Source: a virus (Duplodnaviria; Caudoviricetes). Taken from it: DNA of 64,000 nt. A program made the position numbers and the translations under genes. The stretch is taken from IMG/VR virus record IMGVR_UViG_3300049144_000095, positions 96,001-160,000 of that record, one strand, 5' to 3'. Numbering within the stretch: the first letter of the stretch is position 1; each line of letters opens with the position of its first letter. Of the stretch, positions 6,409 through 58,801 are shown one piece after another. The notes beneath the pieces were generated by a model. The model saw nothing but the letters and a program-made list of their open reading frames with translations, ran no database searches and had not been told where the DNA came from.

Positions 6409-6495
6409 GCACCGGGGAGTCGCGCTAGGGCGGCCGGGAGTCATTCCGGCCGCCCGGGGGTGTCGCCCGGCACTGAGGTACGGAAAGGGGAAGGC

Positions 6496-6966
6496 ATGTA
6501 CGAGGTTGTCCGACCGGAACGCAAGATCGGGACGTCGGACGGGTGGCGGACCGAGCCGGAACAGCGGCGCACGTTCCACACGGCGGCCGGTCTGTTCCGG
6601 TGGGCGCTGCGGGAGCGGGTGTTCAGTCACCGCACCGGCGGGGTGCCGTACCCGACCCGGTTCGATGACGTCCACCTGGGCGACCGGAACGGTGACGAGG
6701 GGTACGACTACCACCTGATCGACACGTTCACCCCGTGGGAGATCACGGGTGAGCATCTGGCCGCGATGCGCCGGGTGCAGCGCCGGTACGCGGAGATCGT
6801 TCACTACCTGCGGGAGGTCGAGCCGGGGTGGGAGCCGGACACGTCCGTGAGCCCGACCGGCAAGATCAGTTACGCGGACAACTCCGTGGTCCTGTACGAG
6901 ATCAGCAAGTACGGCGGGAAGCGGAGCCGGACGCTGGTCGCCCCGCACGGTGACGCCTGCTTCTGA
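6496..6966 (+). CDS. hypothetical protein
   Basis: ACGGAAAGGGGAAGG upstream. Confidence 0.8.
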   Translation: MYEVVRPERKIGTSDGWRTEPEQRRTFHTAAGLFRWALRERVFSHRTGGVPYPTRFDDVHLGDRNGDEGYDYHLIDTFTPWEITGEHLAAMRRVQRRYAEIVHYLREVEPGWEPDTSVSPTGKISYADNSVVLYEISKYGGKRSRTLVAPHGDACF

Positions 6967-43254: not shown

Positions 43255-43316
43255 GAGGCCGAAACCCCCGACAGGGGGTCGCGGAATGGGTGTCCCGCCT
43301 GACGATGGCCGTCAGC
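43255..43316 (+). ncRNA. type II hammerhead ribozyme HH1; predicted cleavage after C43280 (GUC)
   Basis: GGCC-GAAA-stem III CCCCC/GGGGG-TC-stem I GCGG/CCGC-CTGACGA-T-GGCC; all core nucleotides present, extra U between A9 and G10.1. Confidence 0.85.
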
Positions 43317-43338
43317 AAGCAACCGGCAAGGAGAAGAA

Positions 43339-48384: not shown

Positions 48385-48690
48385 ATGACTCCCAGGGAAC
48401 TCTTTGCTGGCACAATTCCTGGCCCGTGCTGGGTGCATGGCAGCGACCTCGGGGTGGACGAGGACGGTGGCCTCTGGGTCCGGGCCACGGCGCACCTCAA
48501 GGAAGGCCTGGCATCCCGGGTGCACCCGCTCGGGGAGAGAATCACCATGAAAGACTTCCGGGAGTACTCCATACTCACTCCCGAGGGGCAGACCATCCTG
48601 GATCCTCGTCACCGAACTGAACCACTCTGGCGGCGAGTTCAGGAGTTGAGCGCCGAATCGATCGGCAGCGACTGGATCGCCGTCCACTGA
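48385..48690 (+). CDS. hypothetical protein (paralog of 57709-58014)
   Basis: WV..DLGVD.DG.LWVR..WI.V. Confidence 0.7.
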   Translation: MTPRELFAGTIPGPCWVHGSDLGVDEDGGLWVRATAHLKEGLASRVHPLGERITMKDFREYSILTPEGQTILDPRHRTEPLWRRVQELSAESIGSDWIAVH

Positions 48691-55079: not shown

Positions 55080-55343
55080 ATGGCTTACATCGAAATCGAC
55101 GAGATCGATGGCCTTTTCGACGTCGAGGAGACCTTTCATCACGGCAAGCCGATGACCGTGCTCAGCATTCTTGGCATGCCCGTGCTGTACGGGCCGCCCG
55201 GCAGGCTGGACCGGCAGTACGGGGATGAGGTGCTGGAGGAGCTGAAGCCGCACATCGCCAAGGCGCTGGCGAGGCTCCTGCTCGCCGACGGCAACCTCCC
55301 GGGCTGGCAGGCCGAGCCGGTCGACGTCGAACCTCCACACTGA
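55080..55343 (+). CDS. hypothetical protein (tandem paralog of 55480-55752)
   Basis: AGGAGCACCCC upstream; MA.IEI.EI.GLF.V. Confidence 0.8.
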   Translation: MAYIEIDEIDGLFDVEETFHHGKPMTVLSILGMPVLYGPPGRLDRQYGDEVLEELKPHIAKALARLLLADGNLPGWQAEPVDVEPPH

Positions 55344-55479
55344 CGAGACGGTTCGTGCCAAGCCCGGACATCAACCCAACATCGGAGCGTCGCATCTCTT
55401 GCCTTACCGATATGCATCCGTCACTCCGCACGCCATTCGGACCGTCTCGCCCAGCACTGACCGTAGGGAGAAGAAGCAA

Positions 55480-55752
55480 ATGGCGAAGATCGAGATCAAC
55501 GAGATCGAGGGCCTGTTCACCGTGGATGTAGCCAGGGACACCGGCGGCAACTACGTCGGCGTACTGAAGATCCTCGGTCACACAGTGCTGTACGCCCCGG
55601 AAGAGGTCGTGCTGCACCCCGGCACTGCCCACTGGAACGACGTCACCAGTGGGGTCCTGGCTCGCTTTCTGGCGACACAGTTGATGGACAGCGGCGCCAT
55701 GGAGGGATGGGACTTCACGTCGCCCACCGGGCGAGAGGTGAGCGGGGACTAA
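55480..55752 (+). CDS. hypothetical protein (tandem paralog of 55080-55343)
   Basis: AGGGAGAAGAAG upstream. Confidence 0.8.
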   Translation: MAKIEINEIEGLFTVDVARDTGGNYVGVLKILGHTVLYAPEEVVLHPGTAHWNDVTSGVLARFLATQLMDSGAMEGWDFTSPTGREVSGD

Positions 55753-56343: not shown

Positions 56344-56652
56344 ATGGGCAGCAACGACAGCTCCCTCGATGAGCGCTACCCCGAGCACGCCAAACAGCGC
56401 AAGGTCATCTCCCAGATGGACGCAGTCCAGTCCTTCCTCGACGCCATGCAGGAGCGGGGTCTCGAACTCGGGGAGACGGTGGTCACGCGGGTCGCCGTGT
56501 TCGAGGGCACCGAGGAGTGCACCGCCGTGCAGTCGGTCAGGGGGGAGAGGCTGACACGGCTGGTCAACGAGCACTTCGGCATCGACCGCTCCAAGATCCT
56601 GGCCGAGAAGGAGCAGATGATCGCCGACATGGCGGCAGGAAGTCTCCGATGA
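56344..56652 (+). CDS. conserved phage-type hypothetical protein
   Basis: YPEH.K..FL..G..L..FGID..+..EK motif; TCGGAAAGG upstream. Confidence 0.8.
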   Translation: MGSNDSSLDERYPEHAKQRKVISQMDAVQSFLDAMQERGLELGETVVTRVAVFEGTEECTAVQSVRGERLTRLVNEHFGIDRSKILAEKEQMIADMAAGSLR

Positions 56653-56978
56653 AGCCGAGTGAACGCCTTCTGAAGATGATCCGCCAACAGCTCCCCGAGC
56701 TGGACATCCCCGAAGGCGCCCGGCTGGAGCGAGCTGCTGGGTCCTACGCCGGATGGAACCGCACATCGCTCGGAGCCTGGGTGTGGACGGCGGTAGACGC
56801 GAACGGCGTACCCCTGCACCGGAACTCCGAGGGACAGCCCCTGGCCATAGGTTCCCAGTGGACCATGACCGAGCTGGTGCGCGCAGGTTCCCTCGCGGCC
56901 AACCCATCGGGAGCGAACCCCGGAGACATCCACATCGAGCCGACAGACGAGAAGCAGCGAGAGGGGGTGGCACAGTGA
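56649..56978 (+). CDS. conserved phage-type hypothetical protein
   Basis: GAW.W..IGSQW.+.EL motif; ATGA overlap. Confidence 0.8.
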   Translation: MKPSERLLKMIRQQLPELDIPEGARLERAAGSYAGWNRTSLGAWVWTAVDANGVPLHRNSEGQPLAIGSQWTMTELVRAGSLAANPSGANPGDIHIEPTDEKQREGVAQ

Positions 56979-57259
56979 ACGGCTACACCGAGCTGGTTGT
57001 CGATGTGTCCGGCCTGTACGACGGCTACACGGCGCCCGAAGTGATCTGCCAGCGAGCGCGGGATCACTGGCTGAACGAGTTCGCGGCGGCCGAACTCAAG
57101 CTCCCGTTCGGAGAGGGCAAGCAGCAACGGCTGGACGACGGCATGTACCTCATCTACTGGTTCGTCGGCACCGACGAGTACTGGTACTACGTCACGCTCA
57201 ACATGAATCAGTACAAGGTCACGACCGAACGGAAGGGCAAGGCGCAGAAGCGCGCCTGA
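56975..57259 (+). CDS. hypothetical protein
   Basis: GTGA overlap. Confidence 0.75.
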   Translation: MNGYTELVVDVSGLYDGYTAPEVICQRARDHWLNEFAAAELKLPFGEGKQQRLDDGMYLIYWFVGTDEYWYYVTLNMNQYKVTTERKGKAQKRA

Positions 57260-57280
57260 CGGAACGGAAAGGGGAAGAAC

Positions 57281-57652
57281 ATGACCGATCAGCCATGGGT
57301 GCAGGTGTTCCCCGGCCCCGGCCTGGATCCGGGATTCCGCTGGGACATCAACGGCCGGGCCCAGTTCCGGCACAAGGGCTACTCAGTGGATGTCCTCATC
57401 CGGCAGGCCACCACCGACGATGCCGCGTATTACGTACGCGAGGAGCCCAGCATCAACGACGTGGTGATCGTCGGCACGGTCAGCCTGGACCACGTGGAGC
57501 TGTCGAACGCCGAGCACCGCGCTGACATCACGGAACCCTTTCAGATGAGCCAAGCCCTCGCCTACGTGCTCGACGCGGCCGTGGAGGACGCTCGTCGGAT
57601 GGTGGGCCGCCTGGTAGAGCGGGTGGCGGAGATCGACGCGAAGCAGAACTGA
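57281..57652 (+). CDS. hypothetical protein
   Basis: ACGGAAAGGGGAAG upstream. Confidence 0.8.
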   Translation: MTDQPWVQVFPGPGLDPGFRWDINGRAQFRHKGYSVDVLIRQATTDDAAYYVREEPSINDVVIVGTVSLDHVELSNAEHRADITEPFQMSQALAYVLDAAVEDARRMVGRLVERVAEIDAKQN

Positions 57653-57672
57653 CCCCAGGCCGAAACCGGGCA
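57649..57672 (+). repeat. truncated hammerhead 5' half; 24-nt direct repeat of 58011-58034 with 1 mismatch
   Basis: CTGACCCCAGGCCGAAACCGGGCA vs CTGACCGCAGGCCGAAACCGGGCA. Confidence 0.75.
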
Positions 57673-57708
57673 GCCAATTCAGTCTTTAGAAGGGAGGGAG
57701 TGGGACCA

Positions 57709-58014
57709 ATGGTGAGCATCAACGATCTGGATGGACCGGTGCGAACGGTCGCCGACGTCGTGCGCCAGAGGAAGATCGGCGCTCACTTCGTCGCGCACCG
57801 AGACATCGGCCTGGATCCTCAGGGCAACTTCTGGCTCCGACGCGAAGGCAAGGTGGATCTGCTTCCGGGACTGAGGAAGAAGATCGCTATTGCATGCGTC
57901 CGGGATTCGGGTCTGCGCCTGAGTTCCAGTCAGACGATCGCGACCGACAAGGTGCAACGTCTCGCCGACCCCGTGGACGACACCACTTGGATCAAGGTTC
58001 AAGGGACCTTCTGA
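57709..58014 (+). CDS. hypothetical protein (paralog of 48385-48690) flanked by hammerhead-derived direct repeats
   Basis: AGGGAGGGAG upstream. Confidence 0.75.
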   Translation: MVSINDLDGPVRTVADVVRQRKIGAHFVAHRDIGLDPQGNFWLRREGKVDLLPGLRKKIAIACVRDSGLRLSSSQTIATDKVQRLADPVDDTTWIKVQGTF

Positions 58015-58081
58015 CCGCAGGCCGAAACCGGGCATCCAGCCCGGTCGCGCAGTGAGGCTGCGCCTGACGATGGCCGTCAGC
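58011..58081 (+). ncRNA. type II hammerhead ribozyme HH2; predicted cleavage after C58046 (GUC)
   Basis: Stem II CTGAC/GTCAG + bulge CGCA + GGCC/GGCC; GAAA; stem III ACCGGGC/GCCCGGT; stem I GCGCAG/CTGCGC; core CTGACGA plus extra U. Confidence 0.9.
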
Positions 58082-58105
58082 GGAGGAACCGGAAAGGGGA
58101 AGAGC

Positions 58106-58429
58106 GTGGGAGACCAGAAGGACGTCTACCTGATCGGCGAGCAGTACTCGAACAAGGCCACAGGTCGAAAGGGCGTCGCCGTGATCCGCCCGGCAGTGCT
58201 CGAAGGGCTGTTGTCGGAGGAGCCGAAGGTCATCACGACATCCCCCTGTTGCCCCGACAAGGTCCGGCACCTGTCCTACGCCGACATCACGTCGAGCCTG
58301 GCTGCCAAGCAGGGCGGCTGGGCCATGCAGTGCAAGGAGTGCAAGTGGCACTACAAGGTCGTCGCTGAGCAGACCGGAGCCACCCGGCTCGGCCTGTACG
58401 GCGTGCGCTGGATCTCGCAGGGGTTCTGA
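58106..58429 (+). CDS. zinc-binding hypothetical protein
   Basis: CCGGAAAGGGGAAG upstream; PCC..CKEC; starts 60 nt after the HH2 cut site. Confidence 0.8.
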   Translation: MGDQKDVYLIGEQYSNKATGRKGVAVIRPAVLEGLLSEEPKVITTSPCCPDKVRHLSYADITSSLAAKQGGWAMQCKECKWHYKVVAEQTGATRLGLYGVRWISQGF

Positions 58430-58447
58430 GGAAGGGGAGACAGAGGC

Positions 58448-58801
58448 ATGGGAAGCAACCTGAGCGGCGTACAGGCTGGGACCGAGCTGCTGCTGGCAAG
58501 GAAGGGCTTCGGCAGGCGCAACCTGGACCAGGAGCCCAGGAAGGTGCAGGTGCACAAGGTCGGCACCAAGCTGGTGTACATCCAGGATGGCACCACCGCC
58601 ACCGCGTACCGGATCGAGAACGGCCGGTCCAACTCTCAGTACAACGACTACGAACTGTGGCGGCCGGAGGAGTGGGCTGCGGAGGGCAGGCGTGCCGAGC
58701 TGGAGAAGGCCCTGAACGCTCACGGTGTCGAGGTCTGGCGCAAGCAGCAGCCGATCCGCGTCCTGGAGAAGCTGCTCGCCGTCCTCGACGGAGAGCTGTA
58801 G
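58448..58801 (+). CDS. hypothetical protein (SH3-like beta barrel, V.KVG.KL)
   Basis: GGAAGGGGAG upstream. Confidence 0.8.
   Translation: MGSNLSGVQAGTELLLARKGFGRRNLDQEPRKVQVHKVGTKLVYIQDGTTATAYRIENGRSNSQYNDYELWRPEEWAAEGRRAELEKALNAHGVEVWRKQQPIRVLEKLLAVLDGEL

Follow-up and report, generated by a model that had tools for sequence, protein, structure and literature searches.

The window analysed here is a stretch of 64,000 nucleotides that corresponds to bases 96001-160000 of a 251,159-bp IMG/VR virus record (hereafter G000), which is judged complete. At the DNA level, it shows a likeness of about 71% to the Streptomyces jumbo phages exemplified by Satis, Kela and Frankenweenie. The locus under study consists of three genes, A, B and C, with the 5' fragment of a type II hammerhead ribozyme between A and B and an intact hammerhead, HH2, between B and C (Table 1). 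In a motif scan of the whole 251-kb genome, HH1 and HH2 were the only intact hammerheads found. Gene A has no match in Pfam or PHROG. The leaders for translation initiation of A (57258-57292) and C (58083-58117) are 74% alike over 35 nt, with the pattern GGAAC.GGAAAGGGGAAGA..TG, a motif that recurs ahead of many genes in G000. Gene D (58448-58801), two genes 3' of HH2, carries a Phage ProQ C-terminal-like domain (PF24203, E 4.7e-16; phrog_3032), an RNA-chaperone-like fold neighbouring a ribozyme.

Table 1. Ribozyme copies, their parts and the associated genes in the window
Feature	Position	Strand	Remarks
HH1, intact hammerhead	43257-43317	+	Rfam 24.2 bits; orthologs in Frankenweenie and Kela
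Gene P	48385-48690	+	101 aa; distant relative of B
Gene A	57281-57652	+	123 aa; from the ORF list; TGA stop within the CTGAC that opens the remnant
Type II hammerhead 5' fragment (remnant), predicted dead	57649-57676	+	repeat of 58011-58038; opens with CTGAC
Remnant, stem II 5' strand	57658-57661	+	GGCC
Remnant, GAAA	57662-57665	+
Remnant, stem III 5' strand	57666-57671	+
Remnant, loop	57672-57676	+	AGCCA
Unique spacer	57677-57708	+	contains the gene B ribosome-binding site GGGAGGGA at 57692-57699
Gene B	57709-58014	+	101 aa; TGA stop within the CTGAC of HH2
HH2, intact type II hammerhead	58011-58082	+	span includes CTGAC; ribozyme proper 58020-58082
HH2, stem II	58020-58023 with 58072-58075	+	GGCC
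HH2, GAAA	58024-58027	+
HH2, stem III	58027-58033 with 58039-58045	+	7 bp
HH2, predicted cut	after C58046	+	GUC site
HH2, stem I	58047-58052 with 58058-58063	+	6 bp
HH2, core	58064-58070	+	CTGACGA; followed by one extra U
HH2, tail	58076-58080	+	GTCAG
Gene C	58106-58429	+	107 aa; Cys-rich C-terminus; 61% ortholog in G001

The preliminary description of this DNA had reported that the first 24 nt of HH2 are repeated behind gene A with one mismatch. Indeed, 57649-57672 and 58011-58034 agree at 23 of 24 positions, for which 100 shuffles gave 0 matches, and a repeat search extended the repeat to 28 nt (26/28 identical, spacing 362). Both copies open, as had been claimed, with a CTGAC that holds the TGA of the preceding gene (57650-57652 for A, 58012-58014 for B). 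The stretch is present in five soil metagenome runs; contigs from four other soil metagenome runs equal the window across both junctions with zero differences, and a single 2109-nt contig covers 57065-59173. No RNA run carrying the stretch is listed. The identical contigs in other soil metagenome runs rule out an assembly artefact. That the repeat is such an artefact or a chance similarity has nothing but its shortness in its favour and carries next to no probability, given the shuffles, the contigs from four further runs that span the junctions, and the base-for-base coincidence of the repeat with a defined part of the ribozyme, itself conserved in relatives.

The left copy retains the stem II 5' strand, the GAAA, the stem III 5' strand and the loop, and breaks off in the loop of stem III. 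In the 32 nt behind it (57677-57708), nothing significantly resembles the 3' part or tail of a hammerhead: shuffles equalled the scores in 983 and 1903 of 2000 trials. The copy therefore lacks stem I, the 3' strands of stems II and III, the GUC site and CUGACGA, in agreement with the loss of stems and core described before. The remnant has neither a complete core nor the three helices of a hammerhead and, since cleavage site, stem I, catalytic core and closing strand are all lacking, is predicted to be a dead fragment and not a ribozyme. It has no structure of its own, its local fold being unstable (z +1.27). A motif scan of the whole G000 genome found no orphan hammerhead 3' half, and across IMG/VR the exact 19-mer of the remnant occurs only in three intact ribozymes, with no other half copy.

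Several candidate extensions and further copies were rejected. An extension of the remnant up to GUC (57677-57684, ATTCAGTC compared with GCCCGGTC, 4/8) and a reading of TCAGT (57679-57683) as the relic of a GTCAG tail both failed in the shuffle test of 57677-57708. Look-alikes of the half copy in G000 at 217922 and 222216, both on the minus strand, lie in non-ribozyme contexts and are probably chance; the former, outside the window at 217904-217930 (minus strand), is a 19-nt look-alike of the hammerhead front, GGCCGAAACCGG-CAGCCAG, beside a hairpin.

Gene B is a plausible gene with a good ribosome-binding site and a GC3 of 0.745 versus a GC2 of 0.43. Its GC3 lies below that of its neighbours; gene P is equally low in GC3, and the composition of B is therefore no proof of foreign origin. 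The ribosome-binding site was discarded as a foreign signature as well, since both types of this motif occur commonly across the genome. At 56900-58600, nothing resembling a promoter or a terminator was found, and we rejected B as an independent transcription unit for this reason. Protein searches covering 5.8 billion and 1.84 billion proteins returned B itself only (word index) or B and three long repeat proteins (Big_9/cadherin, NHL) that we judged spurious (exhaustive phmmer). There was likewise no match in an IMG/VR pattern scan, in GenBank phages by tblastn, in Pfam or in PHROGs, and no usable one in the ESM Atlas, where the model reached a pLDDT of 0.40.

Gene P had been put forward as a paralog of B from which B might have been duplicated. 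The two are related, but only distantly (25% identity over 89 aa, pairwise E 2e-5), with the motifs D-[IL]-G-[VL]-D..G..W-[VL]-R and W-[IV]-x-V in common. P itself is conserved in relatives, with a 61% ortholog in G001, a 59% homolog (P0006) and a partial match to gene 260 of Kela. A duplication is unlikely in view of the 25% between B and P versus the 61% between P and its G001 ortholog; with an identity of just 25%, B is not a recent duplicate of P. B appears to be a lineage-specific orphan and a distant member of the P family.

HH2 and its phage subclass

The catalytic core of a hammerhead consists of C3-U4-G5-A6-N7-G8-A9, G12-A13-A14, an A15.1-U16.1 pair and H17 (not G) at the cut site. 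HH2 possesses all of these elements, namely the CTGACGA, the GAAA, the pair A58027-T58045 and C58046. Among 42 distinct phage copies, the core is invariant and stems I and III covary, with many compensatory pair types. Within a set of 13 phage copies of the same length that align without gaps, the three helices of the type II fold are paired in 221 of 221 cells and 10 of the 17 pairs are changed on both sides; sliding the partners by 1-3 columns leaves 29-51% paired. Stem II is invariant in this set and hence weakly tested; outside it, we found one compensatory case, GACC/GGUC in Kela (L018).

Perreault et al. (2011, PMC3088659) described the type II hammerheads (RF02276), with which the copies here share the open stem II, the capped stems I and III, the intergenic position and the core composed of CUGANGA, GAAA, A-U and GUC. 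Against the Rfam model Hammerhead_II (RF02276), HH2 scores 30.4 bits (E 0.037), which is sub-threshold at a gathering score of 37, and neither HH2 nor HH1 (24.2 bits) gives any Rfam hit at the gathering threshold. This subclass also differs from the type II hammerheads described in having an invariant 3' end, CUGACGA-U-GGCC-GUCAG. Its relatives score 18-32 bits in Rfam, again below the cut-off of 37. A 17-mer across core and tail occurs in 64 IMG/VR stretches, about 50 of them with full hammerheads from very different phages, among which is Burkholderia phage BcepGomr. Despite these sub-threshold scores, the conservation and covariation argue that the HH2 family is a genuine hammerhead family and HH2 a further member of a known ribozyme class. 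Thus, a widespread subclass of phage hammerheads escapes default Rfam annotation at the curated cut-off.

A pseudoknot between loop I and the 3' tail is typical of type II hammerheads (Perreault 2011, PMC3088659). The tail GUCAG is invariant here, so covariation with loop I cannot show, and the tail can pair elsewhere instead, either with the core's own CUGAC or with the upstream CUGAC that holds the stop of the preceding gene. The former pairing would mask the active site (58064-58080, and likewise 43299-43315 in HH1), the latter (58011-58015) would lengthen stem II. Masked and active folds are nearly equal in predicted energy (-39.7 versus -39.6 kcal/mol), and termination of a ribosome at the upstream CUGAC might in principle tip the balance between them.

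The corresponding site in relatives

The nearest relative found, G001, is an IMG/VR phage of 259,646 bp that is collinear with the window from 48.3 to 61.8 kb at 45-75% amino-acid identity; with about 70% nucleotide identity, it is the only close relative of G000. A single-protein search of IMG/VR gave no further relatives of gene A, and a metagenome scan gave two distant partial matches only, both without hammerheads.

If B had entered at the ribozyme, as the preliminary description proposed, relatives should carry an empty site in which gene A is followed directly by one intact hammerhead. G001 does: its ortholog of A (64% amino-acid identity) ends in the same CTGAC and continues directly into a single intact hammerhead, after which come gene X (44 aa, Cys-rich) and the C ortholog, and B is absent. 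BLAST aligned G001 156732-158078 with window 56374-57676, and G001 156671-156759 with window 58011-58099; the two matches overlap on G001, and therefore the first 28 nt of its sole ribozyme match both copies of the window. Compared with G001, the window thus contains a 362-nt insertion bounded by a 28-nt repeat. The G001 ribozyme is like the remnant in front (27/28) and like HH2 at the back (41/42). The remnant has zero changes of its own over 28 nt, and the flanking DNA is about 30% diverged from G001. Relatives that carry both repeats in the absence of B were also looked for, and there were none among the relatives.

These comparisons indicate that B was gained or lost by DNA recombination with breakpoints inside the ribozyme. 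From the original proposal of an entry by recombination or duplication at the ribozyme, the recombination stands, given the empty site in G001, and a recent duplication of P does not. This holds whichever course of events is preferred, because the favoured event and both of its main rivals all recombine at the ribozyme sequence.

Gene X, located between the hammerhead and C in G001 and missing from the window (L088, about 6470-6660 on the minus strand; L044, 427-560 of the reverse complement), has one copy of the leader motif TCGGAAAGGG on either side and so forms a second repeat-bounded indel beside the same ribozyme. Elsewhere in the collinear region, the adjacent ORFs 55080-55343 and 55399-55752 both match one G001 gene at 44-46% identity, which suggests a tandem duplication in G000; in Satis-type phages, too, homologs of them are located upstream of the ribozyme.

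Is the arrangement of genes around this ribozyme found beyond G001? In Satis-type phages, we found the order N gene, hammerhead, small gene Y and a 158-aa homolog of C; since the ribozyme stands in the same order in both clades, it serves as an orthologous landmark. The likeness of the window to the DNA of Satis, Kela and Frankenweenie type begins exactly at 58011, the start of HH2. Gene C matches only the C-terminal part of the 158-aa gene (L001 4511-4987), with the common ending GLYGVRW-x-S-x-GF. The Satis subclade and the metagenomic contig L025 carry an additional orphan gene of 72 aa, with no match elsewhere, between two intact hammerheads with differing stems. Compared with Kela, the added unit of gene and ribozyme has the conserved 5' ribozyme part as its boundary. 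The orphan is a second, independent insertion at the orthologous ribozyme. The broader statement that many different genes follow the orthologous ribozyme in Satis-type phages was dropped: most have one and the same family of small genes (VYDWA...TGFPxID), and only Satis differs.

Altogether, seven phage contigs, among them Satis and L025, carry pairs of intact hammerheads around single small ORFs. In two unrelated phage contigs (L066 6254-6558 and L068 8529-9211), the paired hammerheads are near-identical, including the leader and the next start codon, which suggests recent tandem duplication of ribozyme-plus-leader units.

Order of events at the ribozyme

We favour, at a probability of roughly 0.55, a single and fairly recent event in which the resident ribozyme broke within its stem III loop and was linked to a segment composed of a leader, B and a hammerhead front. 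The ancestor would have carried gene A, one type II hammerhead, perhaps a small gene, and gene C, an order that persists in G001. In the lineage of G000, one recombination at the DNA level would then have broken the resident ribozyme at 57676|57677 (the left breakpoint) and brought in a foreign segment, in which the leader of 32 nt was followed by gene B and by the initial 28 nt of a hammerhead native just after the stop of B. The right-hand exchange would have taken place within or just after the ribozyme sequence, so that HH2 is now completed by the 3' elements of the resident ribozyme, from the stem III 3' strand and the cut site through stem I and the core to the closing strand. The outcome would be a dead front fragment after A and a working ribozyme after B. 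The repeat, the parts missing from the left copy, the empty site, the lack of B in relatives and the covariation of the family are observed; the direction of the event, its donor, the exact crossover and the self-cleavage of HH2 are inferences.

Consistent with such a single event, the stem III strand of the remnant and stem I of HH2 both belong to the resident (G001) type, the 3' elements are present as one set only, no trace of a deleted 3' half is left in the 32 nt behind the remnant, and B is an orphan. The position of the stop of B in the right repeat fits a native junction of gene and ribozyme, although it could also be chance (1 frame in 3). Against a single event speaks that one of its joints must be illegitimate. 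An origin of the scar at the RNA level was rejected, since a cleavage-site joint would be expected after 57684 and the actual breakpoint is 57676|57677.

An unlikely but more gradual course would be that two complete hammerheads flanked B first, through a homologous exchange between ribozyme copies, and that the upstream copy then lost about 46 nt from the stem III 3' strand to the tail. Satis and L025 show the state with two intact copies arising at the orthologous site, the seven phage contigs with intact pairs around single small ORFs document the same arrangement, and the TCAGT behind the remnant is readable as a tail relic. However, the 32 nt in question are not significantly like any hammerhead 3' part or tail, and two events are needed instead of one. 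This course also predicts stems of foreign type, whereas both copies of the window have the resident type of stem III and the Satis and L025 pairs differ in their stems.

The direction of the change is a separate matter. The half copy, B and HH2 could be ancestral, with B lost in G001 by recombination between the 28-nt repeats and one whole ribozyme regenerated. A deletion between direct repeats would yield exactly the structure of G001, with its front like the remnant and its back like HH2, and gene X with its flanking leader motifs shows that repeat-bounded indels occur there. Yet an old dead fragment should have drifted by about 30% as the flanks have, B is without a homolog in any other relative, and no deletion allele appeared in the contigs of four metagenome runs, in which rare forms can hide. 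We regard a loss in G001 as improbable. More generally, neither an excised form nor a deletion joint was seen in these contigs, which drop rare variants. The unchanged remnant between flanks that are about 30% diverged suggests that the scar is young relative to the split of G000 and G001; whether B was gained here or lost in G001 is judged from this youth of the scar.

The lack of drift would also be expected if the remnant were retained for a function, for instance as a second possible 5' strand for the 3' half of HH2, with pairing across 362 nt, or as a regulator of A or B. Its GGCC and stem III strand are identical to those of HH2, and such long-range pairing is possible on paper. But it would cut at HH2's own site and thus add nothing, the remnant lacks a stable local fold, the half copy is conserved in no relative, and the genome has no orphan 3' half; a function of the remnant is very improbable.

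Under the favoured single event, HH2 most likely cuts a multi-gene transcript between B and C. On the B side, the RNA would have the stem III hairpin and a cyclic phosphate at its end; on the C side, it would carry a 5'-OH, with the stem I hairpin as its first element, about 60 nt ahead of the start codon of C. A and B would no longer be parted by a cut. The ribozyme would be no dedicated recombination site; it would have acted as a passive patch of shared sequence, and A and C have almost no other non-coding target between them.

Ribozyme sequences in gene exchange and comparison with known systems

Are hammerheads preferred sites of exchange? The preliminary description had suggested that ribozymes in general are recombination hotspots and cassette boundaries. 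We found no support for this, as most indels fall on ribozyme-free junctions. In the 13-kb syntenic block, the window and G001 differ by about 8-9 gains, losses or rearrangements, nearly all without a ribozyme; a ribozyme stands at one of about 27 junctions there, and no enrichment was found. The annotation tables of Satis, Kela and Frankenweenie list four other variable junctions, all ribozyme-free. As the spacer between A and C is almost entirely ribozyme, any viable insertion between these genes must fall in it. Breakpoints within the motif, as known for PeSL-like elements, were found both for the indel between window and G001 and for Satis and L025 compared with Kela. The ribozyme sequence can thus be the site of an exchange and supply its homology, while a preference over other sites is unsupported. 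It appears to be one short intergenic repeat among several whose use is incidental, and the half copy is an informative but ordinary recombination scar.

We speculate, with considerable doubt, that phage hammerheads might have a dual role: the RNA cuts transcripts, and in the DNA the invariant 5' and 3' segments act as portable homology patches for the exchange of gene-plus-ribozyme cassettes between co-infecting phages. If so, half copies such as 57649-57676 would be scars of imprecise exchanges, and it would be explained why hammerheads so often bracket orphan genes of changing identity. Functionally, they would be akin to the PeSLs of T4-type phages, which they would join as vehicles of phage gene shuffling if ribozymes were preferred exchange points.

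Perreault et al. (2011, PMC3088659) already reported that multiple copies of type II hammerheads flank individual prophage genes of non-constant identity, and read this flanking as transcript processing; DNA recombination at the ribozyme is undiscussed there, and we found no literature that proposes hammerheads as recombination sites. The origin of such gene brackets has been unaddressed since 2011, and the empty site, the half-copy scar and the Satis insertion together show them to be made by DNA recombination with breakpoints in the ribozyme sequence. Satis, L025 and five other contigs correspond exactly to the pairs described in 2011. The locus in the window departs from them in that one flanking copy is a dead 28-nt front fragment.

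T4-type phages possess promoter-stem-loop cassettes (PeSLs) that mediate the shuffling of modules (Arbiol et al. 2010, PMC2839356; Comeau et al. 2014, PMC4122927). Like these, the hammerheads are short conserved intergenic motifs among small orphan genes in hyperplastic regions, and gains and losses between close relatives break within the motif. Unlike the PeSLs, which are promoter-plus-terminator signals in dozens of copies, the hammerheads here number two intact copies plus a fragment, no match to a promoter or terminator lies near the ribozyme, and most indels of the region are away from ribozymes. Excised circles have been demonstrated for PeSLs, whereas the contigs of four runs here hold no excision joint. 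Finally, B resembles the phage 'morons' and other orphan-gene indels in being one small gene of unknown function that is absent from the slot of a relative. It differs from 'morons' in that no promoter or terminator of its own was found and in that its insertion is marked by the partial duplication of a structured RNA.
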